A stretch of 64,000 nt of DNA from Promethearchaeia archaeon. Lineage in GTDB: Archaea > Asgardarchaeota > Lokiarchaeia > Sigyniarchaeales > SOKP01. The translations under genes and the position numbers were made by a program. The notes beneath the pieces were generated by a model. It searched no databases. It saw nothing but the letters and a program-made list of their open reading frames with translations, and was not told the origin of the DNA. The DNA is taken from positions 32,001-96,000 of the forward strand of contig JAHQWK010000016.1 in assembly GCA_029856145.1 (NCBI GenBank). The letters are read 5' to 3'. Positions 9,311 to 57,595 of this stretch are shown here, one piece after another (within the stretch, counting starts at the first letter, position 1; each line of letters starts with the position of its first letter).

Positions 9311-9921
9311 TTAGAACTCTAAAAATCCAGGATCATCAAAAATATCATCAATTTTTCGTTCTTTCTTTATCTTTGTATCCGTTTCAGCAAATAAGGATTC
9401 TTCATCAGTTCTAACCCCCCGTTCTAGTTCTTCAGTATCACGTTTTAATAATGCATCTTTTTCAAGCTGTTTATATTTTTCCGATCGTATTTTCCAATTA
9501 TCAACTTCATCCAAATTAACATTATCTTCTTCTAATAATATCGCTGCTTTTGTTTTACATAGATCTGATAAAATAGAATAGGATAGAATAATATCTCCCC
9601 ACTCATTATCTTCTTTTAAACTAACAATCCGTTTTTCTAATCTTAGTAATTCTTGGTCTGCATAATATATATCAATAAAATCCCCAAAAGCATCAACGGG
9701 TTCTGAGATTGAATTTACTAATACTTCTTTTGTTAAATCACAATTTCCACATTTTACAGTAGCAAAGGCACCTTTCTTCTTAATATCAGTGACTTTTACG
9801 CTTTTTTCACCGCATTCCATGAAAAATTGGAAATCAATTATTTTCATTCTGGACAGGTGAAAATTTTTGGTACTCTCTTAACTCTTTTTGGTGATACTTG
9901 TTTACGTTTTCTTCTTCCCAT
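9311..9921 (-). CDS. elf1: Transcription elongation factor Elf1 with C-terminal extension; two exons (9921-9847 and 9814-9311), about 192 aa
   Basis: Exon 1 MGRRKRK..PKIFTCPE + exon 2 CGEKSVKV..VKCGNC..EPVDAFGDFIDIY gives the Elf1 signature once 32 nt are removed. Confidence 0.88.
9815..9846 (-). other. Putative 32-nt BHB intron in elf1 mRNA
   Basis: Hairpin insert with TGA/TAA stops; central helix CCAG/AUGG, two AAU bulges, exon-exon helix UUUUCACC/GGUGAAAA. Confidence 0.8.
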
Positions 9922-10120
9922 TATTATCACTACGCAAATATGTAATTAAATTATCTGTCATCATTTAGAATAAAGAAAAGGAAAACTAAAATATTTTTGC
10001 TTTTATGTGAAAACATTTGAAGGCTTTTAGCAAAATTTTTTAGGAATGATTAATTATTTCACTTACTTTTTTTTACTGAAATAATTTAGCAATTTTAATA
10101 ATGGTGAGTGGATTTTAGGT

Positions 10121-11221
10121 ATGGAACATAAAAATTTAACATTGGAACATGATAAAAACTTAATAGATAACGTTCTAGATAATATAGACATGAGATACAT
10201 AATTCTTTTCTTATATGTCATTAGAAATGATTTATTTAAAGACTTAACCGACAATACTCTAATTGAATCTTATGAAAGAGTACTCATATTAGATGATATT
10301 TATAAAAGCAATATTATAACATTTTGGAACGAAGAATTTATCGAAATTTATATAGATTTAGGATTAATAAAAAATATTCGAAGCTTGAGAGAGTTTGAGC
10401 AAAAAGAGGATGATTTTAATCTAAAGTTAGGAGAAGAAACTATAACTATTGAAAAAGATACAATCTCTGTTCCAGATGATACAATATATTTAATAATAAA
10501 TAAGAAATTTAAATTTTTAAATAGAAGGAATTTTAATTTAGCCCTCACCAGGCTAAAAGGGGTACGATGTGAAAAAAGCAATATGATTCATTCATTAATT
10601 CTTGGAATTGGTGAACATGATTATACATTACCAGATGATTTTTATTATATTTTAGACCAATATGGGAATATTTATCAAGCTATTAAAATTGAGGTTACAA
10701 TTGAAGGGTTCTTTCAAAGGTTTAAAGAAATCCAAGAAAAAATCAATGGATTCGTTAAAATTTTTGATCCTGCACTAAATACAAAATTAGTTATGAAAAA
10801 AATCAACAAAGCAATAGAAGAAAGTAAAGAGATAATTCAATTTCTTAAAGATGAGAAGGTAGAACTTTCTGATAAATTTAACTTTGATAAAATTAATAAA
10901 AATGTTGACATCTTTAAAGAATGGAATTCTAAATTATTGTCATTATTAAAATATAGGAACCAGCTTGAAGAAATTGATACAAAATTGATAGATTTGAAAA
11001 AAAATTATTCTAGTAAGGAAAAAAAATATAGTTATTTAGAATTTATTGAAAAAATCTCTTTCAATGAAGAAGGGATAGTAGATAATATTCAAAATGCTTT
11101 GATCGAATTACGAAAAGAATTGGTTAAAATTAATGAACATATTACTAAACTAACAGAAAAAGAATTAAAATTATTAAATTTGGATTATGAAAGATTAATA
11201 ATAATGAGTAGTGATGAATAA
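10121..11221 (+). CDS. Hypothetical protein (possible N-terminal winged helix, C-terminal coiled coil)
   Basis: 366-aa ORF, first gene of a tight operon. Confidence 0.75.
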   Translation: MEHKNLTLEHDKNLIDNVLDNIDMRYIILFLYVIRNDLFKDLTDNTLIESYERVLILDDIYKSNIITFWNEEFIEIYIDLGLIKNIRSLREFEQKEDDFNLKLGEETITIEKDTISVPDDTIYLIINKKFKFLNRRNFNLALTRLKGVRCEKSNMIHSLILGIGEHDYTLPDDFYYILDQYGNIYQAIKIEVTIEGFFQRFKEIQEKINGFVKIFDPALNTKLVMKKINKAIEESKEIIQFLKDEKVELSDKFNFDKINKNVDIFKEWNSKLLSLLKYRNQLEEIDTKLIDLKKNYSSKEKKYSYLEFIEKISFNEEGIVDNIQNALIELRKELVKINEHITKLTEKELKLLNLDYERLIIMSSDE

Positions 11222-11223
11222 AA

Positions 11224-12192
11224 TTGAAATGTCCTGCTTGTGATATCAAGATGGAACCTTTAGTAGCAGGGATTTTTCAATGTCCACAATGCAAAAAAAT
11301 TATTAAACAAAAAGATAAAGAAACAGAAACAACAGAAAAAAAAGAAATTGAAGTAGGAGATTTTCAAGAGGGTGAATTTTTTCACAAAAATGCAAGTTTG
11401 AATAAGCAATATGAAATTTGTGAAAAAGGAATTACAATAAATAAAACTGAAAATCGTTTATTCGCTGCATTAATTTGTCATAGCGCCTATTTAAAGGAAG
11501 AAAAATATATGAGACTATCTTGGTGGAAGAATTATCAACATGCTGGTATGTTCAAAATTTATGATAAATATGTTTTAAATAATATTATTATGGCTTTGGA
11601 AAAAATCGATGAGTCATTTGATGATATCTGGAGTTGGAGGGGAAAATATGGAAAGCAAAAACAAAAAACAGAAGAAGATTTAGAAAAAGAAAAAAATTTA
11701 GAGATAATAAAATATAGGATTATTGAAAATAGAACCTGTCCTAAGTGTCAGAAAAAAATGAACAAAATGAAATCCCATTATGAATGCCAACACTGTGGAG
11801 AAATTGTTATATTAGAAGGTTATAACCAACCGATTTTTAATATTCTCTCAGAAAATCTTGACCTACGATTTCATGCAAATTTTCCCATAAATTTTTACTT
11901 ACCTGTGAGTGGTATAACTCTTAAATGGTTGATGGGCGAATGGAAAGCATTGGCGGTGATTTATTCTAAGGATAATCCAAATAAAAAATGGCTAAGGTTC
12001 TATTGGTGGGTTCGAGATTTGAGTAATATTTTAAAATATGGCCAGAGAGTGATGGGAAATGGTACTCAGATGGGTTGGAAAGCCCAGAAAGGGATGTCAT
12101 CTCCAAATCTTTATGATAAAAAGCTTATTCGGCCATTAATCAATGCGTTAAAAAATATATCAATTGAATTAAATTGGACAATAACTAATTAA
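11224..12192 (+). CDS. Duplicated Zn-ribbon + PC4/PUR-like domain protein
   Basis: CPAC..CPQC and CPKC..CQHC, each followed by 'R(L/F)xWW...(I/L)YDK..L..I.ALxxI'. Confidence 0.75.
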   Translation: MKCPACDIKMEPLVAGIFQCPQCKKIIKQKDKETETTEKKEIEVGDFQEGEFFHKNASLNKQYEICEKGITINKTENRLFAALICHSAYLKEEKYMRLSWWKNYQHAGMFKIYDKYVLNNIIMALEKIDESFDDIWSWRGKYGKQKQKTEEDLEKEKNLEIIKYRIIENRTCPKCQKKMNKMKSHYECQHCGEIVILEGYNQPIFNILSENLDLRFHANFPINFYLPVSGITLKWLMGEWKALAVIYSKDNPNKKWLRFYWWVRDLSNILKYGQRVMGNGTQMGWKAQKGMSSPNLYDKKLIRPLINALKNISIELNWTITN

Positions 12193-12216
12193 AAAGTATT
12201 AAAAATTGAGAAAAAC

Positions 12217-13356
12217 ATGACAGAAGTTCAAGATACAATATGGAAAGGAATTTTAAATGATTTCCAAGTGAATCTTGAAAAAGCTATAGAAGAACTACAA
12301 AAAAGAGATGTAGAAAATATTCCAGGCGCAAAAGAAGCTTTGATCCAAAGATTAAACAATATGAAAATTCATTTTCCGAAAAATAATGGAGATATCCTAA
12401 TAAAATCGATCAATGATAAAATACAAAATGCTTTTTTTCCAAACACTAAGAGTTTTTCCGAGTCCTTAAAAAAAATTTTGAAATCAAGAACTCACGAGCA
12501 AGATTTTATTATCAATGAATTACTAAATGGATTTGTTACTTCTAAAGCGAAAGCTATAGCATCTGGAACTCAAGGGCCCATAATAGATAGAATGGTCGGA
12601 GCGTTTAGTAAGAGAAATGACTTCCATATCGTTGATCATCAATTTTTTGCTATGTTTGGAGATCCAAATAAACCACATCATTATGTGAAAAATCAACTTG
12701 AAGAACTTATAAACATGTTTGGACTTATTTCAAAAGAACTTGTAATAAAAAAAGACGTAAGAAGGAGCGAAGAAAAAGTATATGTTTTTTACACATTTCC
12801 AGATGAAATCATTAAAATTCTTGAAGAAAAATATTTGATTATTGATGAAGAATTAGGTTATGCTATTGTTTCAAAAGAGTTTGATAGGAATGTTTTTATA
12901 AGCATGTTCTTAGCAAATATGGCTATAAACAGGGATGATATTGATAAAATTGGTGGTTCTTACACAATTAATGGGATTTCAGCAATATTCGCATTAATCT
13001 TGTTGCTTAGTTTCATGCCGAAATTAAGTGTTGATGAAACTAATCCCATTTTAAATGATCCTAATTTTAATGAGAAAAATATGAGTGTAATTCCAAAATC
13101 TTGGATGATAAAACAAGTTTTAGAACTATTATTCGAACCACTCATCAAAATCATAGCTTATAGAATAGGAGGCGGATTGTGGTTATCTAAAATAATTAAT
13201 TCAAAAATTAATAAGAAAATTCACAATCAAATAAGATTTCTTCTCAAGGATGTTAATAAATGGATATTAGGAAATTTATGCCGAGTTGAAATACCTATCT
13301 TCGTTGAGATCTCCAATATATTTACTGAAATTTTAGTAGGATATGATGAGGAATAA
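12217..13356 (+). CDS. Hypothetical protein
   Basis: 379-aa ORF in operon. Confidence 0.75.
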   Translation: MTEVQDTIWKGILNDFQVNLEKAIEELQKRDVENIPGAKEALIQRLNNMKIHFPKNNGDILIKSINDKIQNAFFPNTKSFSESLKKILKSRTHEQDFIINELLNGFVTSKAKAIASGTQGPIIDRMVGAFSKRNDFHIVDHQFFAMFGDPNKPHHYVKNQLEELINMFGLISKELVIKKDVRRSEEKVYVFYTFPDEIIKILEEKYLIIDEELGYAIVSKEFDRNVFISMFLANMAINRDDIDKIGGSYTINGISAIFALILLLSFMPKLSVDETNPILNDPNFNEKNMSVIPKSWMIKQVLELLFEPLIKIIAYRIGGGLWLSKIINSKINKKIHNQIRFLLKDVNKWILGNLCRVEIPIFVEISNIFTEILVGYDEE

Positions 13357-13381
13357 AATTATTATAAATTAGGGTAAAGGA

Positions 13382-14692
13382 ATGAGCTATAAAAAAAAAT
13401 CTACGAGAACAGTAAAACCAGGAAGAAAAAGAGAGAAATGGACAGATATTTTACCAAGGTACTTAACTTTTTTAAGTCACATGCGCCCAATCCTAAGAGA
13501 AACAAGAAGAATAATTCTTTATTTGGATGCAGATTTATTACTTGATATAGAAATTTTAGATAAAATACGTCAAGAAGAAGAAAAAAGGAATATTCGTAAA
13601 GTTAGAGCACTTTCAGAATTTTCTGCTATGTATAGATCCAATATTTATGAAATTATTAAAGATTTTATTGTTAAATATCGAGAAAAAATCCCTATAATAG
13701 ATATCAAAGATTATATTGTAGATTTTCTTCACGAATCCATTGATGCATTGAATGTTCTACGTCATATCACTAATCCTGATGAATCGAATTTAGAAAACAC
13801 ATATTTATATCAATTAGTTAAATTTATTGAAGATAAACTATTGCCCAGAGGTGCGAACCTAGCAATCATCTATGGTAATTTATTACAGCATTCCACTGAT
13901 TTCTATGAGTGTCAAAGACATCTTTTACAATCTCATACATATTATCGAGAAAATTTAGAAAATCCGAATTATTTTGAAATTCCTGGAATATCACCAAAGA
14001 TTTATCAAATAATAAACAATATAACATCATTGTATAATTTAGACCCTAATTTTGGGGAATTCCCAGAAAAACAAAATCATGAAATTCCTATGATCTTAAA
14101 AAATGATGTATTTTTGCCCTATATTGACTCGATTGCCAATGCAGAAGAAGAAGCCTTAGAGAAAGTTGCTGAACGAATTGGTTTACGTCTCATTGATGGG
14201 ATATTTTTAGCGCCACAAGAAGATTTTGTAGATATTTTATTAGAAAACAACTTTTTGCGTGATAATAAGCAATCAGATGGAACAATAAGATTTTATCCAC
14301 AATTTAGTAATGAAACTTTAATACTATACTATTTGGCTTTTGCCTCTCAAAGACGAGGTTTTTTGTCGAAGGAATTAGTTAATTGGATTTCAATGAATTA
14401 TGCATTCTTGATATATATGGGTATTTTAAAATGGAAATTATCTGATGAAAATATATTTTATACTATCTTTAAAGATCTTCAAACAAATGAAAAAGTACTT
14501 CCATATTTAATGAAATTAATATGTTTTCCGAATTATTTGGGATTAGATAAAATGAAAATTAGAGATTCTATTCAATATCGAAAAGAAATTTTTAATTTTA
14601 TTGGATCCCAAATAGATAATCTTAAAATTTTAATTAATGAAATTGCACTGTTTTGTGAGAGTTTTGAAAATAGAAATAAAAAAAAAAAATAA
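13382..14692 (+). CDS. Hypothetical protein with basic N-terminus
   Basis: 436-aa ORF in operon. Confidence 0.75.
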   Translation: MSYKKKSTRTVKPGRKREKWTDILPRYLTFLSHMRPILRETRRIILYLDADLLLDIEILDKIRQEEEKRNIRKVRALSEFSAMYRSNIYEIIKDFIVKYREKIPIIDIKDYIVDFLHESIDALNVLRHITNPDESNLENTYLYQLVKFIEDKLLPRGANLAIIYGNLLQHSTDFYECQRHLLQSHTYYRENLENPNYFEIPGISPKIYQIINNITSLYNLDPNFGEFPEKQNHEIPMILKNDVFLPYIDSIANAEEEALEKVAERIGLRLIDGIFLAPQEDFVDILLENNFLRDNKQSDGTIRFYPQFSNETLILYYLAFASQRRGFLSKELVNWISMNYAFLIYMGILKWKLSDENIFYTIFKDLQTNEKVLPYLMKLICFPNYLGLDKMKIRDSIQYRKEIFNFIGSQIDNLKILINEIALFCESFENRNKKKK

Positions 14693-14721
14693 AATATTTT
14701 TAAAAAAAGAGTTGAAATTAT

Positions 14722-15831
14722 ATGCCTAAATCTAATATTGAGAAGGAAGATAAATTAATATATTCTGATGATGTTATTAAAGAACGACTTGGAAAATATG
14801 GAGCAATTTATTTTCCTTCAGACATTAAAGAAACCGTAGATGATATTTTAGGAAATGAAATTAAAAAAGAAGTTTTAGATGATTTTTTTAAGGCCCTAAA
14901 AAAATATAATGAATTTACTGAAAATTTAAAAAATACAAATTTAGCTCCAAACCTAACTGTCCTTCTTTATGGACCCCCAGGTACAGGAAAAACTTCCTTA
15001 ACAAGAGGATTTGCTAAGAAATATAATATCCCATTATGCGTCGTAGAGTCTGATAGGCTTGTTTCACCTTTACTTGGAGATACCATCAAAAATATTCGTG
15101 GAGTTGTAGAATTAGCCGCTGAAATTTCTAAAGAACGAAATGCTTTTGTTTTATTTTTTGATGAAATTGATGCAATCGGCTCGGAGAGATCTAACATTCA
15201 TGAAGTAGGAGAAATTAAACGAGCTGTAATTTCTTTCCTCCAAGTCATTGACAGAATAAATTATGAGGGGGTACCTCTTGCGATTTTTGGTGCTACAAAT
15301 CATCAACATCAGCTAGATTCAGCAATATGGCGTCGATTTACATTCCATTTTAAATTTGATTTTCCTGATTTTCATTTAAGAAAAAAAATTATCGAATCTT
15401 TTATTAACAAAGTAAAAAATGCGAAAATCGGGGTAGACGACTTAATTTTTTCAAATCTAAACAATGAATATAAAAAAGTTCAAACAGTATCAAAAGAATT
15501 AGAAGCAAAATTAGGACGATTTGTATCTGAATTTGAAAACGGTCTTTTATGGGAAGAATTCAAGAAAAAAAATAAATCTGGAGGCCTTTTAGAATTATCA
15601 TATGGATATTCTGGATCAGATATTGAAAGGGGTACAAGGGTCGCCTTATTAAAATCAATCAATACAGGATTATTAAACTATGATATTTTTTATAATTCTT
15701 TAAAGTTAGTTGGGGGTACTGCAATTCATGTTGAAAGACAAGATATTTTAAGTACCACTAAAAAAACCTCGACGCATACAAGAATTTACGAGAAAAATAG
15801 AAATAAGTCCCCTGGACCTCCTGAAATATAA
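14722..15831 (+). CDS. Single-ring AAA ATPase
   Basis: GPPGTGKT, FFDEID, GATN, 'LDSAIWRRF', 'GYSGSDIE'. Confidence 0.92.
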   Translation: MPKSNIEKEDKLIYSDDVIKERLGKYGAIYFPSDIKETVDDILGNEIKKEVLDDFFKALKKYNEFTENLKNTNLAPNLTVLLYGPPGTGKTSLTRGFAKKYNIPLCVVESDRLVSPLLGDTIKNIRGVVELAAEISKERNAFVLFFDEIDAIGSERSNIHEVGEIKRAVISFLQVIDRINYEGVPLAIFGATNHQHQLDSAIWRRFTFHFKFDFPDFHLRKKIIESFINKVKNAKIGVDDLIFSNLNNEYKKVQTVSKELEAKLGRFVSEFENGLLWEEFKKKNKSGGLLELSYGYSGSDIERGTRVALLKSINTGLLNYDIFYNSLKLVGGTAIHVERQDILSTTKKTSTHTRIYEKNRNKSPGPPEI

Positions 15832-15860
15832 AAATAATAAAATTTACTAAATTAAAACTT

Positions 15861-16901
15861 ATGAGCAATAACCAAATATTTAATCTAGAAAAAATAAAGG
15901 AATTGACAAGTCCAATTGAAGATCTACAAGTAGAATTAAATCAATTAAATGATACTTCGTTAAAAATTACAGAAAATATGCAATTTATTGAACATGAATT
16001 TAATGATAAGAATTTTCTCTCCCAGATAGCAACATTAAAGGAATTGCTACAAAATGTAAATAATAGGTTGAATAAAATTTCAAAAATTAATCTCAATAGA
16101 TTCCTGGATTTTCAGGACCAGTTAATTAAAAAATATAAAGAAGATTTTAAAAATAATTTAAAAAAATTAAACATCAATAAAGAAATAACAAAAAAAATAG
16201 GATTAAATCTAATTGAACGCAAAAAAATTAGTAAAATCATCGATTTTATGTCATTCGTTCCTTCAATTGAAATTGCACGATGGTTGGAACTTCTAGATTC
16301 ATTAAAACACAATACAATTTTCTTAAAAACCATAAAGAAAACTAAACGTTATTATCAAAACTTAATCCAAGTAAAACTTAAAAAAGAATTAAGCAGAATT
16401 CCTGAAGATATTGATCCAAATTTAATAAAAGATTATGAAAAGTTTTTCAAAGAGGATCCTACTTTGACATTTAATGAGTTTTTCCAAACTATTGAGAATC
16501 AGTTAACTCAACAAGAGTTAAGCGCTAAAAGAGCAGTTACAAAAAAGGTAAAAGAGAAAGAGGAATTAGAAAAATTAAAAAAGAAACAAGAAGAACAAAA
16601 AAAGGCTTATGTAAATTATTTAAAACTCTCTGATAGAGAATTTAAAAGGCTCAGGCGGAAGAAAAGCAGAGAAAAATTAACTGACATTTCCAAAGAACCT
16701 ACTGAAAATAATTCAATTGAGATTAGTGATGAAGTTTCTGAAAAGATTAAAAAATTTAAATCTCAATTTGAAAAGAGCTTTAATGAAAAATATATGATTC
16801 AAAAGGATGAAGATAAAAATCCTATTGATTTAATTCGAGAAAGAAAGAAAAAAAAAGATAAAGAGTATAAGGAATTTGAAGACCATTTCGAAAACAATTA
16901 A
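15861..16901 (+). CDS. Coiled-coil hypothetical protein
   Basis: 346-aa K/E-rich helical ORF. Confidence 0.75.
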   Translation: MSNNQIFNLEKIKELTSPIEDLQVELNQLNDTSLKITENMQFIEHEFNDKNFLSQIATLKELLQNVNNRLNKISKINLNRFLDFQDQLIKKYKEDFKNNLKKLNINKEITKKIGLNLIERKKISKIIDFMSFVPSIEIARWLELLDSLKHNTIFLKTIKKTKRYYQNLIQVKLKKELSRIPEDIDPNLIKDYEKFFKEDPTLTFNEFFQTIENQLTQQELSAKRAVTKKVKEKEELEKLKKKQEEQKKAYVNYLKLSDREFKRLRRKKSREKLTDISKEPTENNSIEISDEVSEKIKKFKSQFEKSFNEKYMIQKDEDKNPIDLIRERKKKKDKEYKEFEDHFENN

Positions 16902-16922
16902 TAAAAACAAAAGGTATAAAAT

Positions 16923-18536
16923 ATTCTAAAAAACAATTTTAAGGTATCCATCGGCTCAAAAGAAGTTTTAATTAAGGATAAATTCACTTTAATTAATGGA
17001 AAATTTAAAAAGAATTTATTAACTGAATATAAAAGTGATTTATTTCTTGAGATTTCTCAAGATTTAAATATTATTCCTATTGAAAAATTTGTGGGTTTTC
17101 TACAAGAAAAAACTCAAGAATTCCATTATTTACTGAAAGCTAATGAGTTATTAGATTTTTTACATGAATACCGTAAAATCATATCAAATAATATAACCAT
17201 TTCTTCTCAATTTAATGAGATTATTCAAAATTTATTTCTCATTCTTCGATACAATGAGCTATTAAAAGAAAAAGAATCTCTGTCGAGAGAATTAGAATTA
17301 TCAAATCAATATAAAAAATCAAGTGATAGTGCTGCTAGTAAAGATCTATTGAATAAATTGAATGAATCGTTAACCCTAAACATGAAAAAATTGAAGCTTT
17401 TCGAAGAAGATTTTTTTCAACGTAAAAACCAGATTAATCAGATCAAAAAAACATTGGATAATTATAATATAATAATTCAGCAATTAACTAACCAAAAAAA
17501 GCAATGTTTTAGCCAAATTAATCGGATCACAAGAGAAATGGCAGGAGATAAACAAGAATCAAAAAATGATATAAAAATTAATATCATAGAGTCTAAAAAT
17601 AATTTATCAAATGCAGAAAAAATACGAGCTATTCAAAAGAAAGCAAAAGAAATACAATCTGAAATTACTAATATAAAGTCGAAGAAAAGCCAAACTCAAT
17701 TAAGACTAGAAGAACTAACCCCTCTTTTCGAAATATTTGAAAAGGATCATCAATCACTATTAGAACTAATTAATACTGATAAAAAAAAAATAAATGATTT
17801 ACAATCTGAACTTAAAAAGAGTATTAAAGATGATAAAAGTACAGAAATTCAGGATATTGATTTAGTTGATTTAGTATTTCTAAGACCCTTAGAAGAAATT
17901 AAAAATGATATTGAAAAAACTGATACTGAAATTGATAAATTTACCTTTCCAGAAAATTGTTTTAATCCTCAAAATCCTTGTGATTTATCTCCAATTATTG
18001 GAAAACTGACGAAGTTTGATGAAAAAATAAAGAATAAAGAATCAGAAATTATTATTACCATAAATGAAAAAGAAATTTCCAATTGTTTCAAACAATTTAA
18101 AGAATTAGAGAATTCTCTTTCTAATATCGAAACCTTAATGAATAAGTTTCTAGTAGGGATAAATATAAAATCTCAAATTAGAATCATATTAAGTGATGAT
18201 CATAAGAGCTTTTTCATCAGTTTAATATTTATTAAAAAGGACAAAGAACAAGCCAAATTTGAGGAATTAACTACTCCAGAAAAAATCTTTTTCATGATTG
18301 TGTTTTACATCTCAATTAAACTACATATTAATAAAGATAATATTATTTTTTCAAATGTATCAATCTTAAGCCAATTTAATAAAGCAGGTTCTATTTATCG
18401 AACGATAAGAAAAATTTTGCCAATTTTCGAAATGGAAGATGCCTTATCAAAATTTAATTTAATTTTTATTATCTCTAACTTAGAATTAAAAAAAACAATC
18501 AAAAATTTAAATATTATAACTATCAAAGAGAGTTGA
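16923..18536 (+). CDS. Degenerate SMC/Rad50-like coiled-coil protein (start uncertain; frame open from 16920, first GTG at 17091)
   Basis: N-terminal 'KFTLINGKFKK' (Walker-A position), long coiled coil, C-terminal 'FEELTTPEKIFF..NIIFSN..LIFIIS' (signature and Walker-B positions). Confidence 0.6.
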   Translation: MLKNNFKVSIGSKEVLIKDKFTLINGKFKKNLLTEYKSDLFLEISQDLNIIPIEKFVGFLQEKTQEFHYLLKANELLDFLHEYRKIISNNITISSQFNEIIQNLFLILRYNELLKEKESLSRELELSNQYKKSSDSAASKDLLNKLNESLTLNMKKLKLFEEDFFQRKNQINQIKKTLDNYNIIIQQLTNQKKQCFSQINRITREMAGDKQESKNDIKINIIESKNNLSNAEKIRAIQKKAKEIQSEITNIKSKKSQTQLRLEELTPLFEIFEKDHQSLLELINTDKKKINDLQSELKKSIKDDKSTEIQDIDLVDLVFLRPLEEIKNDIEKTDTEIDKFTFPENCFNPQNPCDLSPIIGKLTKFDEKIKNKESEIIITINEKEISNCFKQFKELENSLSNIETLMNKFLVGINIKSQIRIILSDDHKSFFISLIFIKKDKEQAKFEELTTPEKIFFMIVFYISIKLHINKDNIIFSNVSILSQFNKAGSIYRTIRKILPIFEMEDALSKFNLIFIISNLELKKTIKNLNIITIKES

Positions 18537-19042
18537 ATTTATTGACGATTAATAGTAATGAAATTGACGAAATTGTAAAAAATATTACAAGACTTATTTT
18601 AACAAATCCTCAAAAAATTATTCGAGAAGAAGATCTTAAAAACCTAAGCAAAGAATTCAATTTTGAAGAAATTATGAGCGAAGTTTATTTGAATTTAAGA
18701 AATGTAGGCTTTGAGCTCATAAAAACCAAATTTCTTGAACAACAATTTTATATTCTAACTTCTGAGGGAAAAGATGATAATATTACGCCATCTCAGTATG
18801 GTACTTTAGCCTTAATAATTGCATTAAGCAAAGAGGTTGATGAGAATATAAAAATTGAGGATTTAAAAGAAATCTTTGATGAAACATGGGATACAGATAT
18901 TCAATTTTTAATTGATAATGATTATATCAGAAAATTTGATGAGTTAGGAATAATTAAAATATCACCATTAGGAAAAGCTGTTATGAAAAACATAATTATG
19001 GATATAGGATTAAAGAATTTATTGAATTTATTTACAGAATAA
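18533..19042 (+). CDS. Tandem winged-helix protein, kite-like (ScpB/MksE/Nse1-like)
   Basis: 'LRNVGFELIK..FYIL..ITPSQYGTLALII..FLIDNDYIR..IKISPLGK'. Confidence 0.6.
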   Translation: MNLLTINSNEIDEIVKNITRLILTNPQKIIREEDLKNLSKEFNFEEIMSEVYLNLRNVGFELIKTKFLEQQFYILTSEGKDDNITPSQYGTLALIIALSKEVDENIKIEDLKEIFDETWDTDIQFLIDNDYIRKFDELGIIKISPLGKAVMKNIIMDIGLKNLLNLFTE

Positions 19043-19070
19043 AAGTAATAAAAAAATTTAATATAAAAAA

Positions 19071-19490: not shown

Positions 19491-19554
19491 AATCCATCAG
19501 AACTTTTTTAGTTATTAATAATATTATACTCTTTTGCTTTTATTCTTATTTTAA

Positions 19555-20211: not shown

Positions 20212-20312
20212 TTTTAATGTTCAGATAATATTGTGAATTCAATAGGATATAAAAATAAAGACTTATTCCTTGATAATTTTTATGAATTCGAATAAGAAAT
20301 ATAGGTATGAAT

Positions 20313-21248
20313 TTATCTTAAGTTAAATTGATATTTATATACGATATAAGCCCCTAATATTCCACCTAATTCTGGCAAGTAAAACACAATAACATAAGGG
20401 TCAGTCCAAACAAAAAATATTACTGGAAATAACCTAAGAAGTACAATTAGTAACAAAAAAGATCTCCCATTCATTCTAATTGGAAGGAAATACATTAAAG
20501 CCGTTATTTTTCGATTCATAATTGGAAAAAGGGAATATGAGAATAATCCTAGTATGCCGCCCCACGCTAATCCAATATAAAGGTTATATGAATTTAAGGG
20601 ATATATTGATATGAGTGAAATTCTCAATAAGAAATAGAAAAGAGCTGTAAATAAGCAACTTATTATATACAATATTATTAAAAATTTAGTTCCTTGGCTG
20701 GCTTCAATATTTCTAGCCATAAAATATAAAATCAATAACATAATAAACAAGAAAAACAAACTTAACCAATCATCAGTTCCAACAAAAAGACTAGTAAAAA
20801 AAGTATGGTATGTGAATTTATGTACTATTCCATGTAAACTTAAAGATATATATTCAGGGATCTCATAATAACTAAAAAATAAAGCTATAATAGAGAATAC
20901 TATGATTGTAAAAAAGAGTGTTTTAGTTCCCTGATATTGAGATATTTTTTTATAAGGTTTCTGATATAACCTTAATGTTCTTTCATTTTGTTTTTCTTGT
21001 CTTCTTAAGTATTTTTTGAACGCTTTAGGTTCTTTATCTAAATAAACCCTAGATACCGGTTTTTTCATTGTAGTATCTTGGTATCTTTGATTAGTTTGAG
21101 TAGTAGGGACTACAGGTACATGTTTTAATTCAAATGTACATTCGTGATTTTCAGGTAATCGATGTTTTTTACAAAAAGTACTTCCACAGTATTTACAAGT
21201 AAATGGTAAATAAGTAATTTGTTCGCCGCAAAATTCGCAATAAGTCAG
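20313..21248 (-). CDS. AN1 zinc finger + rhomboid-like pseudoprotease (probable CTG start)
   Basis: The frame extends 60 codons upstream of the ATG at 21068 and encodes [28 protein letters not shown]. The rhomboid-like TMs have GLAWG and PELGG instead of GASG and AHLGG. Confidence 0.8.
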
Positions 21249-21434
21249 CTTAAATCACTTTATATTGTTTTCGTGCTTCTATTAAATTAATTATAAAACT
21301 CAAAAATTTAATAATTTAAAATTATCATCCTTCATAATTTTTACTTTTTGTTTTTCTCTCGTTATTAATTTACTCTTTAGGATTTCAATATATAAAAATT
21401 AAAGAAAAATAAAGATTCAATTAAAATTATAAGA

Positions 21435-22436
21435 TTAAGGAATATATGGGTTTGTACTAATTGGAGCGTAGATAAGCATATACGTTATTATTAAAAGCGT
21501 TAGTAATGAACCACATAACGCGATATATACTTTTTTGTTCCATTTCCAAATATTTTGTCCATCTAAAATACCAATAGGAATCATATTAAAAGTACCTAAC
21601 ATAAAATTCAAATTCGCGGCTAACCCTATTAACATATTAAGTGGGTATATTGGAATTATAAAAGAGATTATGAATAGGATGATACCATAAACTAGATTAA
21701 CTGTGGGACCTGCAGCTTTGCACAATCCTGTAGTTTTATCTATTTTACTTAAACCTAAAACAACAACAGCACCAGGTAAGGCCAAGGAAGGGAAACTATT
21801 TCCACCAGAGATTAATGAATATATGTTAATTACAACGCCAAAAACTGTTAAAATCATCCCAAAGGTTAATAGTCTAAATTTTGTTTGAAGATTAAAATGA
21901 GCTGCTACTTGTCTATGTCCTAATTCATGAAAGAGAAAAGCTGTAGCATAAAAACCAGCTAACATGAAAATTGCCCATTCATATCCCGTATTAATTAAAT
22001 TAGGAGTGAAAGTTATAATGCCGATAATATAAATTAGTGAGACTCCGATTATAAAATGGAATAATTCTGATTTATGAGGCAATAAGATTCCTTTAAACTT
22101 AATTCCAGAATCAGGGTCAAATGCATTTACTGGTACTTGACTTTCTTGACGATACCAGGTATATGTGCCGTCTGTGGTCCCTCGAACTACTCCCGGGGTG
22201 TATGGTTGTTGATATGCTTGCTCTTGAGGGACTGGTGATTGCTGTGGCATTTGACTGTAAGATTGGATAACCGTTGGTGATTGTTGTAATCTTAGACTCT
22301 CTCTTACAATATTGCAATCGTGATTTACTGGGTCTTTATGTATTGCACAATAATCATACCCACATTCACTACAGTGAAAAGGATCTCCAATTATTTCTCC
22401 CCCACAATGTGCGCAATTTGCCATAATTATTACCAA
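21435..22436 (-). CDS. AN1 zinc finger + M50 (site-2) intramembrane metalloprotease
   Basis: CAHC..PFHCSECG..YCAIH....HDC; HELGH; AAGPTVN; FNMIPIGILDG. Confidence 0.9.
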   Translation of the reverse strand: MVIIMANCAHCGGEIIGDPFHCSECGYDYCAIHKDPVNHDCNIVRESLRLQQSPTVIQSYSQMPQQSPVPQEQAYQQPYTPGVVRGTTDGTYTWYRQESQVPVNAFDPDSGIKFKGILLPHKSELFHFIIGVSLIYIIGIITFTPNLINTGYEWAIFMLAGFYATAFLFHELGHRQVAAHFNLQTKFRLLTFGMILTVFGVVINIYSLISGGNSFPSLALPGAVVVLGLSKIDKTTGLCKAAGPTVNLVYGIILFIISFIIPIYPLNMLIGLAANLNFMLGTFNMIPIGILDGQNIWKWNKKVYIALCGSLLTLLIITYMLIYAPISTNPYIP

Positions 22437-22642
22437 ATTTGGAATATTTAATTTTTTAAAAGAATGATTTTTTAATAAAATATAAAATTAAAGATTTAAA
22501 ATTTTATTGAGTATTGTCTTGCTAATTTTTTCTTACGTTTACTAAAATATTCTCCTAATACTTATTAATCTTAAATTAAGAAAAATATATTAAGCCGAAC
22601 TATACTAGGTTATTAAAGTTAAAGATTTTGTTGGTGTATTTT

Positions 22643-22810
22643 ATGAGTGAAGATGAAATTGAAGATGAGAATGAAGATGATATATCATTGGATGAAGAGC
22701 GAAAGAAATTAAAAGAGATGGGTGTCAATAGTACCTGGGATATCTTAACAACTGGTGAAAAGAAAAAGAAAGAACCGGAAGAAAAAAAAGAATTTATAGG
22801 ATTCAATTAA
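22643..22810 (+). CDS. Small acidic/charged protein
   Basis: 55-aa ORF with GGTG upstream and coding-like composition. Confidence 0.6.
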   Translation: MSEDEIEDENEDDISLDEERKKLKEMGVNSTWDILTTGEKKKKEPEEKKEFIGFN

Positions 22811-22935
22811 TTTCTTTGATTCTTGTAATCTCTATTTATTCTAAATATAATAATAAACTCATATATGCAAAAAATTTAATTGCTAACCAATATAATAATC
22901 TAACAATTTAACATGAAATTTAAATTGATGGATAA

Positions 22936-24561
22936 TTGTCTACTCCTGTTTCAATTCACGATGGACCATTTACCACTAATACATTAGTATCAAAAATTTT
23001 TCTTGTTTTTTATAGTATTATCATCTGGTGCTCAATATTACCATTGCTTTTGGAATTATATTTTTTTTGGAAAATAATTGAATTTAATATATCCTTATTC
23101 ATTTGTTTATTACCAATTCAAATTTATTTTGGGTATCTAATTTTAGTTTTCACTTCCATTTTAATAGCAAAACTTTTTTTGATCACAATCAACCTCATTC
23201 ATAAACCTAAGGAAGGAGTCTTTAAGAGAATTAACCAGGACCCTGATTACTATTTTTGGAGCCTAAGAGCAGTTATTAAAAAGTGGCCAATATGGGTTTC
23301 TAAATTCATTCCTTTACCGTTTACTGATAAAATAAACTCAAGATGGTTTGAAAATGATTCAGAATTTATTAAATATGGAAAAAATATTTCAATCGGTAAA
23401 GGAAGTTCAGTAAAAGCGAGTATGGTTTTTAGCGATTTTTTAATTATTAAAAAAGTCAATATTGGAGAAAATGTAATCATTGGCTCAAATTCTTTCATTG
23501 CCCCTGGAACTCAAATCGGTAAAAATGTTATTATTGGAACGATGTCTGCTACTAAATTCAGTCAAACCTTAAAATCAGATTCCATTTACGCAGGTTTTCC
23601 CATTGAACGATTAAAAAACCAAGATTATTCCACATATGATTCCATTGAAAAATTAAGAGAAACCTTAACGAGCACAATTAATTTTAAAGATGATAGTTGC
23701 GATGATGTTAAATTAAATCTAAATCGTCTACAAGGAGAGAAATTTATGAAGAATCTAAAGTATGATTTGCTAATCTTTGGTTTAATCTATTTTTTATCTA
23801 ATGCAATACCCATTTTAGGAATAATCTATTTTGGATCAGAATTATTCATTCCATTTTTTCTCCAAAATCCCAATTTATTTTCTATTTTTACAAACGTACT
23901 CTCACTCACAGTTTTTCTTTTAACTCCTTTAATTCTTATCATCTTTTATATAATAAACTTATTAGGAGTAATCTTCTTTGGAAAATTATTTTATAGAATC
24001 ATGCTGTATATAAAACCTAGTGAAGAAGGAATTTTAGATTGGCAGAATAAAGATAAGGACTTTATATATTACTTCAGACGCTCTTTTCTAATAAGATATG
24101 TCAAATGGAAAGTACAAAAAAGTCCCTTTCCATGGTTAATAAAATTCGCTTATAATAATATTGGGAATTGCCAAATTGGTAGAAATACGGTGATCGAAGA
24201 TTCCTTTTTAGCAAAAGAATTTTTAGAAGTGGGAAACAATGTATATTTAGGAAAAGTATTAATAGCAACTCATTTATGGGATAAAAATTTATCTATAAAA
24301 AAGATTATTATAGGAGATAATGTAGTCATTCAAGATAATTCCTGCATTGCTCCAGGTACAGAAATTGAGGAAAATGTATCTTTATTTCCATTATCAATAA
24401 CGGTTAAATGTGAAAAACTTATAGCAAATTCATTTTACTTAAATACTCCTTTAGTAAAAATTAGCAACGAGGAATTAATCAATGCTTTTAATCTAAACTT
24501 GTATGATATAAATCCTAAAAAAATCAGTTTAAAAAGAGATGAATCCTATTATAATTACTAA
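22936..24561 (+). CDS. Membrane protein with two TM-hairpin + left-handed beta-helix (hexapeptide) repeats
   Basis: Twice 'TM-TM-KP.EG..YY' followed by hexapeptides (IGENVIIGSNSFIAPG; IGDNVVI..CIAPG). Confidence 0.85.
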   Translation: MSTPVSIHDGPFTTNTLVSKIFLVFYSIIIWCSILPLLLELYFFWKIIEFNISLFICLLPIQIYFGYLILVFTSILIAKLFLITINLIHKPKEGVFKRINQDPDYYFWSLRAVIKKWPIWVSKFIPLPFTDKINSRWFENDSEFIKYGKNISIGKGSSVKASMVFSDFLIIKKVNIGENVIIGSNSFIAPGTQIGKNVIIGTMSATKFSQTLKSDSIYAGFPIERLKNQDYSTYDSIEKLRETLTSTINFKDDSCDDVKLNLNRLQGEKFMKNLKYDLLIFGLIYFLSNAIPILGIIYFGSELFIPFFLQNPNLFSIFTNVLSLTVFLLTPLILIIFYIINLLGVIFFGKLFYRIMLYIKPSEEGILDWQNKDKDFIYYFRRSFLIRYVKWKVQKSPFPWLIKFAYNNIGNCQIGRNTVIEDSFLAKEFLEVGNNVYLGKVLIATHLWDKNLSIKKIIIGDNVVIQDNSCIAPGTEIEENVSLFPLSITVKCEKLIANSFYLNTPLVKISNEELINAFNLNLYDINPKKISLKRDESYYNY

Positions 24562-25282
24562 CAATTTAGTAGAAGAAAAGAAGATTTACTGGCTCTATCC
24601 CATTTTAATTTGGTTATCATTTTTTCCTACAAGTCTAATTTATCTGTTTTTCTTTAATTTTTTCTCATTTTGGATTGATCCTATATTTATTATTTGCTTT
24701 TTACCAATTTCACTTGTTTTATATTATCTAGTTTTTATTCTCTTTCTTCTACTATTTGCTAAATTAATTTTAATCCTTCTTAATATGATTAATAAACCAA
24801 AAGAGGGGATATTTCAGAGAAATTTCCAAGATAAAAATTATCGTTTTTTTGTTATAAGAACATGTCTAAAGCGGTTTGTTCTAAAAATATATAATTATTT
24901 TCCTTTACCTTGGGCAAAAATTCTTGCGTTGAGATTATTTGGGGTAAAAATCTCTAATAACACAGGGATATTAGACAGTTTTATTGATTCCGATTTTATT
25001 GTAATCGGTGATAATGTTATACTAGGGGAAGGTTCACTTGTAATGAATTCAATGATTTTAGGGGATTATTTATTAGTAAGAAAAGTTATTTTAAACCGAG
25101 GGTGCACTATTGGCGCATTCAGTGTAATTGCTCCTGGAACTATCGTAGAAGAAGGAGCAATTCTGGGAATGGGAAGTTATACATATTTAAACCAACGACT
25201 TGAAAAGAATTATATTCATTTTGGAAGACCTGCGAAGAGATGGAAAAAAATTGAAGATAATTTTACATTTTCCAAAAAATAA
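24539..25282 (+). CDS. Membrane protein with one TM-hairpin + hexapeptide repeat (acyltransferase-like)
   Basis: 'KPKEGIF..IGDNVILG..IGAFSVIAPG..FGRPAK'. Confidence 0.85.
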   Translation: MNPIIITNNLVEEKKIYWLYPILIWLSFFPTSLIYLFFFNFFSFWIDPIFIICFLPISLVLYYLVFILFLLLFAKLILILLNMINKPKEGIFQRNFQDKNYRFFVIRTCLKRFVLKIYNYFPLPWAKILALRLFGVKISNNTGILDSFIDSDFIVIGDNVILGEGSLVMNSMILGDYLLVRKVILNRGCTIGAFSVIAPGTIVEEGAILGMGSYTYLNQRLEKNYIHFGRPAKRWKKIEDNFTFSKK

Positions 25283-25339
25283 TTATACTTCATAAAATTA
25301 GATTAAAATATTAATATAATAATTTCGGAAGAAAATCAA

Positions 25340-25606
25340 ATGAGGCATAGGGTATATTGTCCTACATGTGAGCAAGAGGTTGTATTACGTAGAAAAAATT
25401 TTGATCACATCTATCACGAGGTACTCTTATTCCTCGTTATCCTAACATTAGGTTTAGGTTTTATTATTTACCTTATTTTGAAATATAGTAAAAAACCAAA
25501 CACGTGCCCAAATTGCGAAACTGCATTTGATTTAGATAACCTTCCCTCCCAAAATATAAAAGTCACTAAGACTTTAGGTACAAGAAGTAACTTTATGCCT
25601 CCTTAA
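25340..25606 (+). CDS. LITAF-like zinc-ribbon membrane protein
   Basis: CPTC - hydrophobic segment - CPNC. Confidence 0.75.
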   Translation: MRHRVYCPTCEQEVVLRRKNFDHIYHEVLLFLVILTLGLGFIIYLILKYSKKPNTCPNCETAFDLDNLPSQNIKVTKTLGTRSNFMPP

Positions 25607-25859
25607 CTTTCATTTGTTTATTACATCTAGGACAAGTTTTATCAATATCAGTGAGCTCCTTTTTCATGATAGTTTTTTGATATTTGCATTTTGCACTTGA
25701 ACAAACAAGTGTATATTTTGTCAACTGAATTGATGGTTTTTCATGATGTTTCTTTTGTACATTTTCACTTTTACTTTTTTTGGTTTGATCGGGCGATTCT
25801 TTATTTTTCTTTGTTTTCTTAGTGTCATCTTCTGACTTGAGCCATTTATCTAAACCCAA
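25593..25859 (-). CDS. Small basic Zn-ribbon protein
   Basis: MGLDKWL N-terminus, CSSAKC..CPRC. Confidence 0.75.
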   Translation of the reverse strand: MGLDKWLKSEDDTKKTKKNKESPDQTKKSKSENVQKKHHEKPSIQLTKYTLVCSSAKCKYQKTIMKKELTDIDKTCPRCNKQMKVKEA

Positions 25860-25977
25860 TTGAACTCACTTTAGAAATTTCTTATTTTATAAAAACTTAA
25901 GATATGAAATTAATTAATTGCTTCTTATAAATAAAAGAAGAGAAAAAAATAAAAATTTGTTTATCAAGAATGATTTG

Positions 25978-27222
25978 TTAAAAGACTTGAACCTTACCTG
26001 CAATAAGTCTTTTTCTTAAATCAATGAAATTCTCCTTACTAAGGCTTTCAGCTGAAACTTCTTCTGCTATTTTCTTTACTGAATCAAAGTTTACATTATC
26101 AGCTGGGATCAATTCGATAGAATTAACCCAAGGGTCCGTTATGGGGCGTCCTATTTGAGATAATAATTTAACATGTGCTTCTATGATATCGCCTTGACCT
26201 CTTTTAATGATCTCTCTTGCCATCTCTGTACCTAATACATTATATAGTTTTCCTACATGGTTTATAGGATTCTTTCCACAAACAGCTTCTAAACTCATTG
26301 GTCTACAAGGAGTAATAAGTCCGTTAGATCTATTGCCACGACCTACTTCTCCGTCATCACCAGCTTCAGCAGATGTCCCAGTAATTGTCAAATACACAAT
26401 ACCCTTTTCGATCTTATCAGCAACATTTACTTGGCATGTTACATCGCGTTCTGGGATAATATCTGCGGCTAAATCTAAAACTGCTTCTTTGATTTGATTG
26501 GTGTAACTTATATATTCACTGGCATCGTTGATATATTTGCTAATCATTGCAGCGGCAACAGTAATTCCGACTTCATTTCCATTTCTCTCAACCATTATCT
26601 TAACATCTTCCCCTGAAGCATTACATTTATCTTTGAATTTATCGGAATTAATCAACCTTTCTGCTTCTAAAGTTATCTTCTCAACATCCGAATTAGGAGC
26701 ATATCCTACTCCAAAACTAGTATCATTTGCAAGTGGAACTTCTTCAGTATGATGAGATTCATCAAAAACCCCTGTTAAATCTATTGAACCAGGTCGGACA
26801 GCATAGTCAAATTGGATATCCTTGTTTAAATCGAGGTTTCTAAAAATATTGGAAAGTACTTCACGTTGGGTTTCTATACAAATAATCGGAATAGGAATAT
26901 ATTCCAGTTTATTTGTGCCATCACCGCATTCTATAAGAATTTGATTTATTGCTCGTCCAACAATCAGAAAATATTGTGGTTGGATTATTAGACCCCCACC
27001 ATACTCTGGTTTCGCAGTCCCTCCAACTAAAGCTGCCTTATCAACATTATGGTGGTATATTCGGTCAAAATTCTCAAGATAATAAAGGCACAGAGCTCTA
27101 GAGCAAGCATCAGCAACTGCGTCACAAACAGTATCAGGATGTCCGATTCCTTTCCTTTCACAGAGTTCTGGGAAGTCACTCTTTTCAATTGGTAAAAAAT
27201 GAGCCTTCGAAATTTTCAACAT
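25978..27222 (-). CDS. mat: Archaeal S-adenosylmethionine synthetase
   Basis: '[10 protein letters not shown]', '[12 protein letters not shown]', '[17 protein letters not shown]'. Confidence 0.97.
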
Positions 27223-27396
27223 TTCAATTAACCATCTTATATAAATAGTTCTTTTAAATATGTTTTTAAATTAATTATCAGTTAAATTCCTTATTAAATG
27301 AAAAATGCAATTAATACATTTCATTATAATTTTTAATTAATAACTTTTATAAATATTTCGTAATTATAATATGCATAAAAAGCATAAAACTAATTC

Positions 27397-27993
27397 TTGG
27401 AAATAATGGAAAAATTACCTGATTTGAGCAAAATCAAAGAATTACGAAAAAAGTTAAATATTAGCCAAAAAGAACTAGCAGAAGAGCTTTCAAAGATTGA
27501 AGAATTAAATGTTCCTCAATCTACAATTTCTAGAATAGAAAGGGGAACAATTGATCCTCCATATACCAAATTCAAAAGAATTTTTGAATATTTAATTAGT
27601 AAACGTAAGGAAAAAGAAGAGTCAATTAAAATTGCCGAAGATTTTATGACCCAAAATATCAAATCCATAAATTCTAGCTCTACAATAAGAGAAGCAGTTA
27701 ACTTAATGAATGAAAATGAAATCTCACAATTGCCTATAATAGAAAATAATCAGAATATTGGAAGTATAACATCAAAAAAAATACAAAAATACATCACAGA
27801 TAATCCAAAAATTATCAATATGGATGTATCGCTAATAAAAGAATTACCATTTCCAGAAATTGATAAAAATTGGAATGTGAAGGATATATCTGATTTACTT
27901 CTAAAATATCCTGCTGTTTTGGTGAGAAAAAATAATGATTATATTGGAATAATCACTGATTCAGATCTTCTTAGATTACCTAATAAAAAATAA
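27397..27993 (+). CDS. HTH-CBS transcriptional regulator
   Basis: 'LRKKLNISQKELA..QSTISRIE.G.IDP' plus a CBS pair. Confidence 0.9.
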   Translation: MEIMEKLPDLSKIKELRKKLNISQKELAEELSKIEELNVPQSTISRIERGTIDPPYTKFKRIFEYLISKRKEKEESIKIAEDFMTQNIKSINSSSTIREAVNLMNENEISQLPIIENNQNIGSITSKKIQKYITDNPKIINMDVSLIKELPFPEIDKNWNVKDISDLLLKYPAVLVRKNNDYIGIITDSDLLRLPNKK

Positions 27994-28110
27994 GAAAATT
28001 TCGAAAATCTATCAATTTTCCAAGGTAAAAGCTATATATTTGTAAATTGATATTACTTAATACAAAAAAGAATAATTTTTTTATGCAATATTGATTTTTA
28101 AAGATTAGAT

Positions 28111-29112
28111 TTGACGATTGAAAAAATCCTTCAAAGGATTGATGGTTTATTAAAGAAGGCTAATTATGAAACATTAGCACTGGGAAATTTTGCTATTAAT
28201 AAATGTAAATTCTGTTTTGATCTTTTAGTTAAAAAGGAAGATTTGGTCTTTAGTGTTAAAATCTTTCCCAATATAGATAACTTAAACCAAAGCGTTATTC
28301 ATGATATTAAATCTTTATCCTTAATCCTTAAATCAAAGCCCTTATTAATTGGAATCAGAAATCGGTATCAAAAATTAGAAGACAATACAATTTATGTAAG
28401 AGAAGGCTTACCCTTTATAACACTTAATACATTTGAGAATATACTCAATGAACAGTACCCTCATATCTTAGCAAGAAGAGGTGGTGGAGTAGTATTTTTA
28501 GATGGTACATTAATGAAAATTTTAAGAGAGAAACATTTAATAACACGAAAAGAACTTTCAGAAATCTTAGGAGTGACCAAGCGAACTATTTCTTCATATG
28601 AAAATGAATCTATGCGACCTTCCGAGAAAATTGCTGAAAAAATATTAGAAATCTTAGAAAATAATAATCTCTTTAAGAAAATGAATCTTTTTGAATGGAC
28701 TATTAAAGATAATATAGATGAAAAAGGAGTCTTAGAAGAAAAAGAATTAAGCCAATTTGAATCGCATGTTCAAGATATAATAAAAGATATTGGGCTTTCT
28801 TCTTATTGGTATAAAAAAGGATCTATTCCTTTCAAATTATCTTTATACTCTCAATCAGATAAAATAAGGTTAGATGACTTTTATCCTCTATTTTCTGGTA
28901 TATCTGAAGAACAGGGAAAAATTAATCAAATGAGCTTTCAATGCTTGAAGTTGTTTACAGATTTATTCCATAAAAATTCACTTTTCATAATTGATAATGA
29001 TATTAAAATTCCTGAGCCGTTTAAAAATGCAAATATCCCTATAGTTAAAATTAAAAATTTAGAAAAAGTTGATGACGAGGAAGAATTCGTTGAACTCATT
29101 CAAGAATCTTGA
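28111..29112 (+). CDS. Conserved archaeal HTH transcriptional regulator
   Basis: 'CFDLLVK..NIDNL..LEDNTIY.R.G', 'ARRGG..DG..LRE..LSEILGVTKRTISSYE'. Confidence 0.85.
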   Translation: MTIEKILQRIDGLLKKANYETLALGNFAINKCKFCFDLLVKKEDLVFSVKIFPNIDNLNQSVIHDIKSLSLILKSKPLLIGIRNRYQKLEDNTIYVREGLPFITLNTFENILNEQYPHILARRGGGVVFLDGTLMKILREKHLITRKELSEILGVTKRTISSYENESMRPSEKIAEKILEILENNNLFKKMNLFEWTIKDNIDEKGVLEEKELSQFESHVQDIIKDIGLSSYWYKKGSIPFKLSLYSQSDKIRLDDFYPLFSGISEEQGKINQMSFQCLKLFTDLFHKNSLFIIDNDIKIPEPFKNANIPIVKIKNLEKVDDEEEFVELIQES

Positions 29113-29818
29113 GGATGAAATAGAACTAATATGTGGGATAGACGAGGCTGGTAGAATTTAATTCGCTTCGAATTATATGTTAAAAGGCTCTGTCTTAGGC
29201 CCTATGGTTTTATGTGGAATTTGTTTCAATAAATCAAAAATAAACTTATTATCTGAAATAGGTGTTAAAGACTCAAAAAAATTATCTCCTATAAGGAGGA
29301 ATAAATTAGCTAATCTCTTGAAAAATTACTGCCACTCATATAAAATCGTTATAATTAGTCCTCAGGAGATTGATGAGAGAGAAAGTAAAAAAATTACATT
29401 GAATCGACTTGAAGAATTAAAAATGGCAGAGATTATCAACACACTGAAACCAGATGTCATTTTTATAGATGCTGTGGATGTAAATGAAGAAAGATTTGGA
29501 CATTCTATAAAAAAATTATTGAATTATATTCCTAAAAAAATAATTTCTGAACATAAGGCTGATGACATATATCCAATAGTTTCAGCAGGTTCTATTATGG
29601 CTAAAGTTAAAAGAGATTCTCTAATTGAAGAACTTCATAAAAAATATGGAAATTTTGGTTCAGGATACCCTTCTGATATTAGAACAATTGAATTTCTTAG
29701 AAATTATGTAAAAAATAATAAGAAACCACCTAAAATCGCAAGGAAATCATGGAATACAACTAAAAGAATAATAAATGAAGAGTTATCTACAAAAAAAATA
29801 ACTGATTTTCTTAATTAA
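29072..29818 (+). CDS. rnhB: Ribonuclease HII; two exons (about 29072-29154 and 29185-29818)
   Basis: ICGIDEAG-R|GSVLGPMV, KDSKKLS, EHKAD..YPIVSAGSIMAKV.RD, GSGYPSD, C-terminal PIP-like KITDFL. Start is ATG 29072 or TTG 29090. Confidence 0.92.
29155..29184 (+). other. Putative 30-nt BHB intron in rnhB mRNA
   Basis: Insert with an in-frame TAA; hairpin UAAUUCG-CUU-CGAAUUA; central helix UGGU/GUUA, bulges AGA and AAA. Confidence 0.82.
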
Positions 29819-46239: not shown

Positions 46240-46292
46240 TTTATTTTAAGACAAATGTGGGATTGTCCCTAATTAATTTTTTTTAAAAATAG

Positions 46293-46396: not shown

Positions 46397-46430
46397 CTAA
46401 TTTAGTATTTTATATAATGTTTCTAAAAAG

Positions 46431-57571: not shown

Positions 57572-57595
57572 TAAATAATTACAAAGGAGATACAA

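Follow-up and report, generated by a model that had tools for sequence, protein, structure and literature searches.

Short bulge-helix-bulge inserts interrupt protein-coding genes in a Lokiarchaeia family and are probably spliced from the messages

The HAC1 and XBP1 messages are spliced without a spliceosome, by a protein endonuclease and a tRNA ligase (RtcB in animals), but the endonuclease, IRE1, cuts two separate stem-loops and is not an EndA acting at a bulge-helix-bulge (BHB) fold, and the reaction is stress-regulated and serves one target. In Crenarchaeota, the cbf5 pre-mRNA contains an intron known from one gene and one site and confirmed by cDNA; the later of these papers gives cbf5 as the only confirmed archaeal pre-mRNA splicing, with putative introns predicted in other genes (Watanabe 2002; Yokobori 2009, PMC2738675). 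A 46-nt BHB intron was later described in the 5′ untranslated region of HVO_1309 of Haloferax volcanii, with cbf5 named as the sole other example (Schwarz 2020, PMC7714728). In tRNA genes of Asgard archaea, non-canonical introns have been gained repeatedly at BHB-competent sites, alongside an EndA of two paralogues (bioRxiv 10.64898/2026.10.13.758758). Here we analyse a stretch of 64,000 nucleotides (the window), corresponding to positions 32001-96000 of contig C18 in an assembly of a Promethearchaeia archaeon (G000; 3.55 Mb, 97% complete), in which elf1 and rnhB are interrupted by short inserts that very likely represent introns of this type. The closest rnhB relatives of the genome are mostly labelled Promethearchaeota (Lokiarchaeota) in databases.

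The inserts resemble the cbf5 intron (16-39 nt among the published sizes consulted) in being short, in lying at a conserved catalytic motif, in their relaxed BHB and in the predicted cut after the second bulge base; a hetero-oligomeric EndA and a patchy distribution with secondary loss are further shared features. They differ in affecting at least 12 genes in a single genome, with several sites per gene and up to three introns per mRNA, in belonging to Asgard archaea, and in that they were read in DNA, from which we infer splicing. The HVO_1309 intron is likewise an EndA-cut mRNA intron and is released as a circle, but it is a single case at a non-coding position, whereas the present inserts lie in coding sequence. 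The preprint on Asgard tRNA introns covers tRNA genes only, and the words 'mRNA' and 'cbf5' are absent from its text (bioRxiv 10.64898/2026.10.13.758758). A literature search made largely without subscription journals turned up no account of Asgard mRNA introns. The chemistry is known; in the papers searched, neither the breadth nor the turnover nor messages with several introns had been described.

An earlier sequence-only reading of the window had claimed that elf1 and rnhB are each broken inside a signature motif by a stop-containing insert of 30-32 nt, and this was borne out. Without its insert, elf1 reads FTCPE/CGEKS across the junction (...FTCPECGEKS...) in a long open frame, and the CPE/CG motif is restored exactly. 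In rnhB, IDEAG-R is joined to GSVLGPMV via a split AG/A codon, which gives an exact DEAGR/G motif and the product ...GIDEAGRGSVLGPMV... in a long open frame; the in-frame TAA of the insert stands two codons past the junction. The claimed fold also holds, each cut falling behind the second nucleotide of its bulge, but with relaxed central helices. Both inserts form helix-bulge-helix-bulge-helix structures, in which the central helix consists of three pairs plus a G.A in elf1 and of one A-U and three G-U pairs in rnhB. None of 15,000 random equal-length genome positions equalled or outdid rnhB when its central, inner and outer helix were taken together, and two of 15,000 did so for elf1 (p=0.00013). 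When both cuts were slid by 1-3 nt, only 0-2 pairs of the central helix were left in either gene. The folding z-scores of the rnhB and elf1 inserts were -2.6 and -2.7, respectively. Cutting after the second bulge base yields mature sequences identical, residue for residue, to intronless orthologs. Features of group I, group II and spliceosomal introns were not found: the inserts measure 28-37 nt, lack GU-AG ends and have no Rfam match in the window.

Ortholog comparison, which the same reading had proposed for presence, absence and covariation, gave consistent results. The rnhB insert occupies the identical base in 28 of 29 same-genus loci, the 29th being unreadable at the insert site; it is 29-30 nt long, contains a stop in every case, and exon 1 is kept in all carriers. 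In the 28-row alignment, 92% of cells are paired (23-46% in slid controls), three inner pairs show two-sided changes, and across relatives the central helix interchanges G-U with G-C and U-G with C-G or U-A. By a class-wide count made by eye, 77 of 119 rnhB genes within the family are interrupted and 42 intact. The elf1 insert is patchier, with 8 carriers and 22 intact genes among 30; its 31-32-nt versions differ in sequence, with two-sided changes at six pairs. The exon-exon helix of elf1 is stronger in carriers (-7.6 to -8.2 kcal/mol) than in non-carriers (-1.1 to -6.0 kcal/mol), without overlap. Structure is thus conserved over sequence, in the two-sided changes as in the stronger exon helix of carriers. 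An assembly artefact, for which the metagenomic origin of the genome is the only argument, is refuted by these comparative data, since dozens of independent genomes contain same-site inserts with differing but compensating sequences; we regard its probability as negligible.

The inserts also mislead annotation. Gene callers take an ATG at 29177, inside the rnhB insert, as the start, and the resulting 213-aa product is recorded on 14 contigs (NCBI, JGI, ENA, Logan), in agreement with the earlier suggestion that such genes are misreported as truncations. Profile matches indicate that the downstream exons of rnhB and elf1 alone lack the family N-terminus. One could therefore suppose that the genes are decaying pseudogenes, or that N-truncated proteins are made from a start inside or after the insert. 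The database product itself speaks for this, as does the presence there of a start-like codon in 24 of 29 rnhB carriers, and an RNase HIII-like domain elsewhere in the genome might cover part of the function. Yet the shortened RNase HII would be without its catalytic D-E, and the bases of the start-like codon are paired, with 5 of 29 carriers lacking it. In the searches made, elf1, pyrG, uppS and rnhB are single-copy; exon 1 is conserved in all rnhB carriers and the downstream exons are intact across dozens of genomes. Decay fails as an explanation, given core genes present once per genome whose two exons stay intact across dozens of genomes, and we consider it, like truncation, very improbable. 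The RNase HIII-like domain (C18:144679-145191, minus strand, outside the window) has a GSDETGKG motif, lies in a 587-codon frame and was seen in few other genomes of the family.

The earlier claim that a permissive splicing endonuclease must exist is supported at gene level. Two genes of the EndA family, at C11:135835 and C24:99005, encode the two subunits, one of them catalytic. The catalytic subunit is nearest to the alpha subunit of Aeropyrum pernix (E 1e-34) and keeps the Y/H/K triad, the KPR loop and the loop lysine; in A. pernix EndA, a loop with Lys44 gives broad specificity (PMC3241643). An intact RtcB gene lies at C18:28297, 2.4 kb beyond the window. From its sequence, the host is predicted to have an EndA of broad specificity together with the ligase RtcB.

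We therefore consider it highly likely that the inserts are archaeal BHB introns in protein-coding pre-mRNAs, cut by EndA and ligated by RtcB in the manner of non-canonical tRNA introns, and the messages of rnhB, elf1 and the other interrupted genes very probably need splicing. The nascent RNA would form an exon-exon helix, an intron hairpin and, with a 3-nt bulge on either side, a central helix of four positions. EndA, crenarchaeal-like and made of two subunits, would cut each bulge behind its second base; RtcB would join the exons, and an intron of 28-37 nt would be released, probably as a circle. A regulatory role is conceivable. This reading is supported, having passed every comparative test run, and several observations weigh against it. 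In the genome itself, elf1 can also adopt a perfect BHB shifted by a single base, whose use would excise 34 nt (9814-9847) and cause a frameshift, i.e. mis-splicing; that pairing is not present in the inserts of relatives. Several central helices are weak, with two pairs in rps3 and three G-U pairs in rnhB. The inserts in rps3, the FAD oxidoreductase, mevalonate kinase, cspA, NifU and the acyl-CoA mutase were examined in this genome alone. None of 500 shuffles reached the six two-sided elf1 pairs, but because the compared genomes are kin, shuffle counts are not probabilities and the covariation counts overstate independence.

Across the genome, a BHB-blind spliced aligner run with 835 outgroup proteins (genome G044, another family) returned three clean inserts of 30-32 nt, those in elf1, rnhB and pyrG, each with a BHB; the proteins came from 2.4 of 4.36 Mb, which makes this homology census incomplete. 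Structure-led scans added uL11, a hexapeptide acyltransferase and uppS, and inserts with BHB geometry were located in the genome sequence in mevalonate kinase, rps3, cspA, NifU and acyl-CoA mutase. The total for the genome is 12 inserts of 28-32 nt, six from our own scans and six checked in sequence, and inclusion of relatives widens the range to 28-37 nt. The spliced N-terminus of the acyltransferase equals the consensus of 26 intronless orthologs, all of which have the junction G. Across the genus, uL11 is interrupted at three separate sites by inserts of 28-37 nt, and the uL11 of one relative (L250, genome G004) has all three (37, 36 and 28 nt). At L250, L240 and L241, two or three BHB inserts fall inside about 25 codons of a single ribosomal-protein gene. 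In pyrG, a 33-nt excision scores well but removes a conserved Ile, and the 30-nt excision fits. The coordinates are collected in Table 1.

Table 1 Features of the interrupted genes and tRNA genes. Plain numbers are window positions; the others are positions on the named contig of the same genome. A slash within a bulge marks the predicted cut.
Feature	Position	Strand	Details
elf1 exon 1	9847..9921	-	25 codons, MGRRKRK...FTCPE
elf1 putative intron	9815..9846	-	32 nt; bulges AA/U and AA/U; central CCAG/AUGG; first codon TGA; frameshifting
elf1 exon 2	9311..9814	-	167 codons; NCBIfam Elf1 match from model position 27
rnhB exon 1	29090..29154	+	DEAG catalytic motif; start uncertain (TTG 29090 or ATG 29072, overlaps upstream gene)
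rnhB putative intron	29155..29184	+	30 nt; bulges AG/A and AA/A; central UGGU/GUUA; in-frame TAA
rnhB exon 2	29185..29818	+	TIGR00729 match from model position 10
tRNA-Lys(CUU)	46292..46396	-	30-nt non-canonical T-loop intron 46307-46336
tRNA-Ser(UGA)	46430..46565	-	canonical 22-nt intron 46507-46528; 30-nt T-loop intron 46445-46474
pyrG insert	C23:64787-64816		30 nt; spliced alignment and BHB; interrupted in 4 genomes
uL11 insert	C28:14741-14768		structure-led scan and relatives
hexapeptide acyltransferase insert	C32:34945-34974		structure-led scan; insert only in this genome (G000)
uppS insert	C3:195586-195615		splits DGNRR; gene truncated at same model position in 6
C2 insert	C2:161153-161184		own scan match; probably FAD oxidoreductase

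The junctions bear on programmed ribosomal bypassing, as in T4 gene 60 or the byp of yeast mitochondria, in which the ribosome would take off before the stop and hairpin and land downstream of them, and no RNA would be cut. In elf1 and cspA, matched take-off and landing codons are indeed followed by a stop and a hairpin. The codons are unmatched at the other 10 of the 12 sites, though, and in one elf1 carrier the landing codon does not match either. At four junctions a split codon supplies the conserved residue and a whole-codon jump would supply a wrong one: R against K in rnhB, N against Y in uL11, G against R in the acyltransferase and D against Y in the mutase. Bypassing also leaves the exon-exon and central helices unexplained. 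It fails because ten of twelve sites are unmatched and four junctions require a split codon for a conserved residue, and we give it very little credence.

The inserts, which on the splicing reading would be BHB introns, cluster toward the 5′ ends of genes. None of the 12 lies beyond codon 76 (summed relative position, P about 1e-5 under a uniform null). The test is post hoc and only half of the sites came from our own scans, but the bias of the homology method is towards mid-gene sites and away from 5′ ones. At the nine sites checked, a stop would be met 0-11 codons past the junction in the unspliced message. In 57 related loci, examined up to 20 kb around rnhB, the rnhB insert and one other BHB-bounded insert were the only ones found. 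The latter (L293:17707, plus strand), from one relative, is 31 nt long and falls mid-gene, at residue 181 of 323 aa, in a gene close to rnhB, counter to the 5′ bias.

The earlier extrapolation to genome-wide occurrence stands in part: inserts do recur across the genome, with 12 in about 3,200 open reading frames, but they are sparse. Some 835 ortholog comparisons gave 3, or about 0.4% of the genes tested, so that the two found in 64 kb exaggerate their density. In a reverse census against an outgroup genome of another family, 688 gene comparisons gave no insert, and all 22 full-length rnhB genes in other families are stop-free and lack the insert. That the trait was confined to a single family in the genome set searched speaks for a derived expansion. 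The proposed relevance to how eukaryotic introns arose is unsupported, because the inserts were found only in this family and look derived.

Within the family, carriers are scattered over a six-gene protein tree (rooted at the midpoint, with several poorly supported nodes, and limited to genomes having at least three of the genes), with minimum changes of 5 for seven elf1 carriers, 7 for nine carriers of uL11 site C and 4 for four pyrG carriers. Such scatter means repeated loss, repeated gain or horizontal movement, and within this one Lokiarchaeia family the putative introns have repeatedly been acquired, lost or relocated. A patchy, tree-discordant presence might also be expected of tiny mobile or excising elements removed at DNA level, or of their inert footprints, and 5-nt direct repeats flank the inserts of elf1 and cspA. 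At the other ten sites, however, the repeat is 0-2 nt, which does not fit the target-site duplication of a MITE or IS footprint. The geometry kept is that of an RNA BHB, including the G-U/G-C interchange of the central helix, and the gene-caller product on 14 contigs starts from within the insert. With RNA-type covariation and a lack of target duplications, DNA-level elements fail, and their probability appears very small. No long co-conversion tract was seen around moving introns, extra identity among carriers mostly reaching no farther than 15 nt from the site.

The tRNA genes offer the nearest comparison within the genome. The 30-nt introns at non-canonical tRNA positions noted in the sequence-only reading were recovered, and their removal, with that of a canonical 22-nt intron, yields tRNA-Lys(CUU) and tRNA-Ser(UGA), both missed by ARAGORN and Rfam. 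A splice-and-recall search found some twenty tRNA introns in the genome, three of them in the window, most of 26-31 nt and many non-canonical; the mRNA inserts fall in the size class of the non-canonical ones. Like those of Asgard archaea and Thermoproteales, these introns are missed by standard annotation. The T-loop introns of the adjacent tRNA genes at 46292-46565 share their final 12 bases, which suggests copying between the two genes. A 15-nt identity links the T-loop intron of tRNA-Gly(GCC) (C22:60629, minus strand) with a uL11 intron of a relative (L242); it exceeds the maximum of 13 nt in 200 hairpin-preserving shuffles, a null without the shared loop motif. This hints at a common intron pool for tRNA and mRNA genes, although no general copying route was found for Asgard tRNA introns (bioRxiv 10.64898/2026.10.13.758758). 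Many mRNA introns have a common loop of the ATTC/TTCG type.

A broader picture, which we hold tentatively and with some doubt, is that one Lokiarchaeia family may routinely splice many mRNAs, including multi-intron messages, by EndA and RtcB, with a pool of ~30-nt introns still spreading between tRNA and protein genes. The 5′-biased, stop-carrying introns could then make splicing an expression checkpoint, and an intron-rich transcriptome would have arisen independently in a prokaryote. If true, mRNA splicing would be a normal step in one prokaryotic group, affecting a dozen or more genes per genome with rapid turnover, and would provide a natural system for intron gain, loss and 5′ bias without a nucleus. 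On the splicing reading, uL11, rps3, pyrG, uppS, rnhB and mevalonate kinase are wrongly annotated in many Asgard genomes, as if truncated or absent, and such misannotation of marker and core genes affects metabolic reconstructions and phylogenomic alignments.

The intrinsic BHB scan, unfiltered, gave 46,879 candidates and was of no use without homology, and its strict version misses rnhB and elf1. Three other candidates were rejected. The site at C5:44377 is a plain frameshift. At C9:530261-530305 (plus strand), the best BHB would remove conserved residues; this split gene matches a 612-aa outgroup protein and has in-frame stops near residue 345, as by fission or decay. Window position 57569 is an ordinary gap between two ECF ATPase genes; these separate ECF-type genes (56738-58450) correspond to one fused gene in the outgroup genome. 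Elsewhere in the genome, ARAGORN reports a selenocysteine tRNA at C8:12915-13007 (minus strand). A small open reading frame at 8581-9030 of the window encodes a stretch rich in proline and glycine and, after it, a short helix-like motif at the C terminus, an arrangement that we take to recall actin-regulator or ESCRT-associated proteins.

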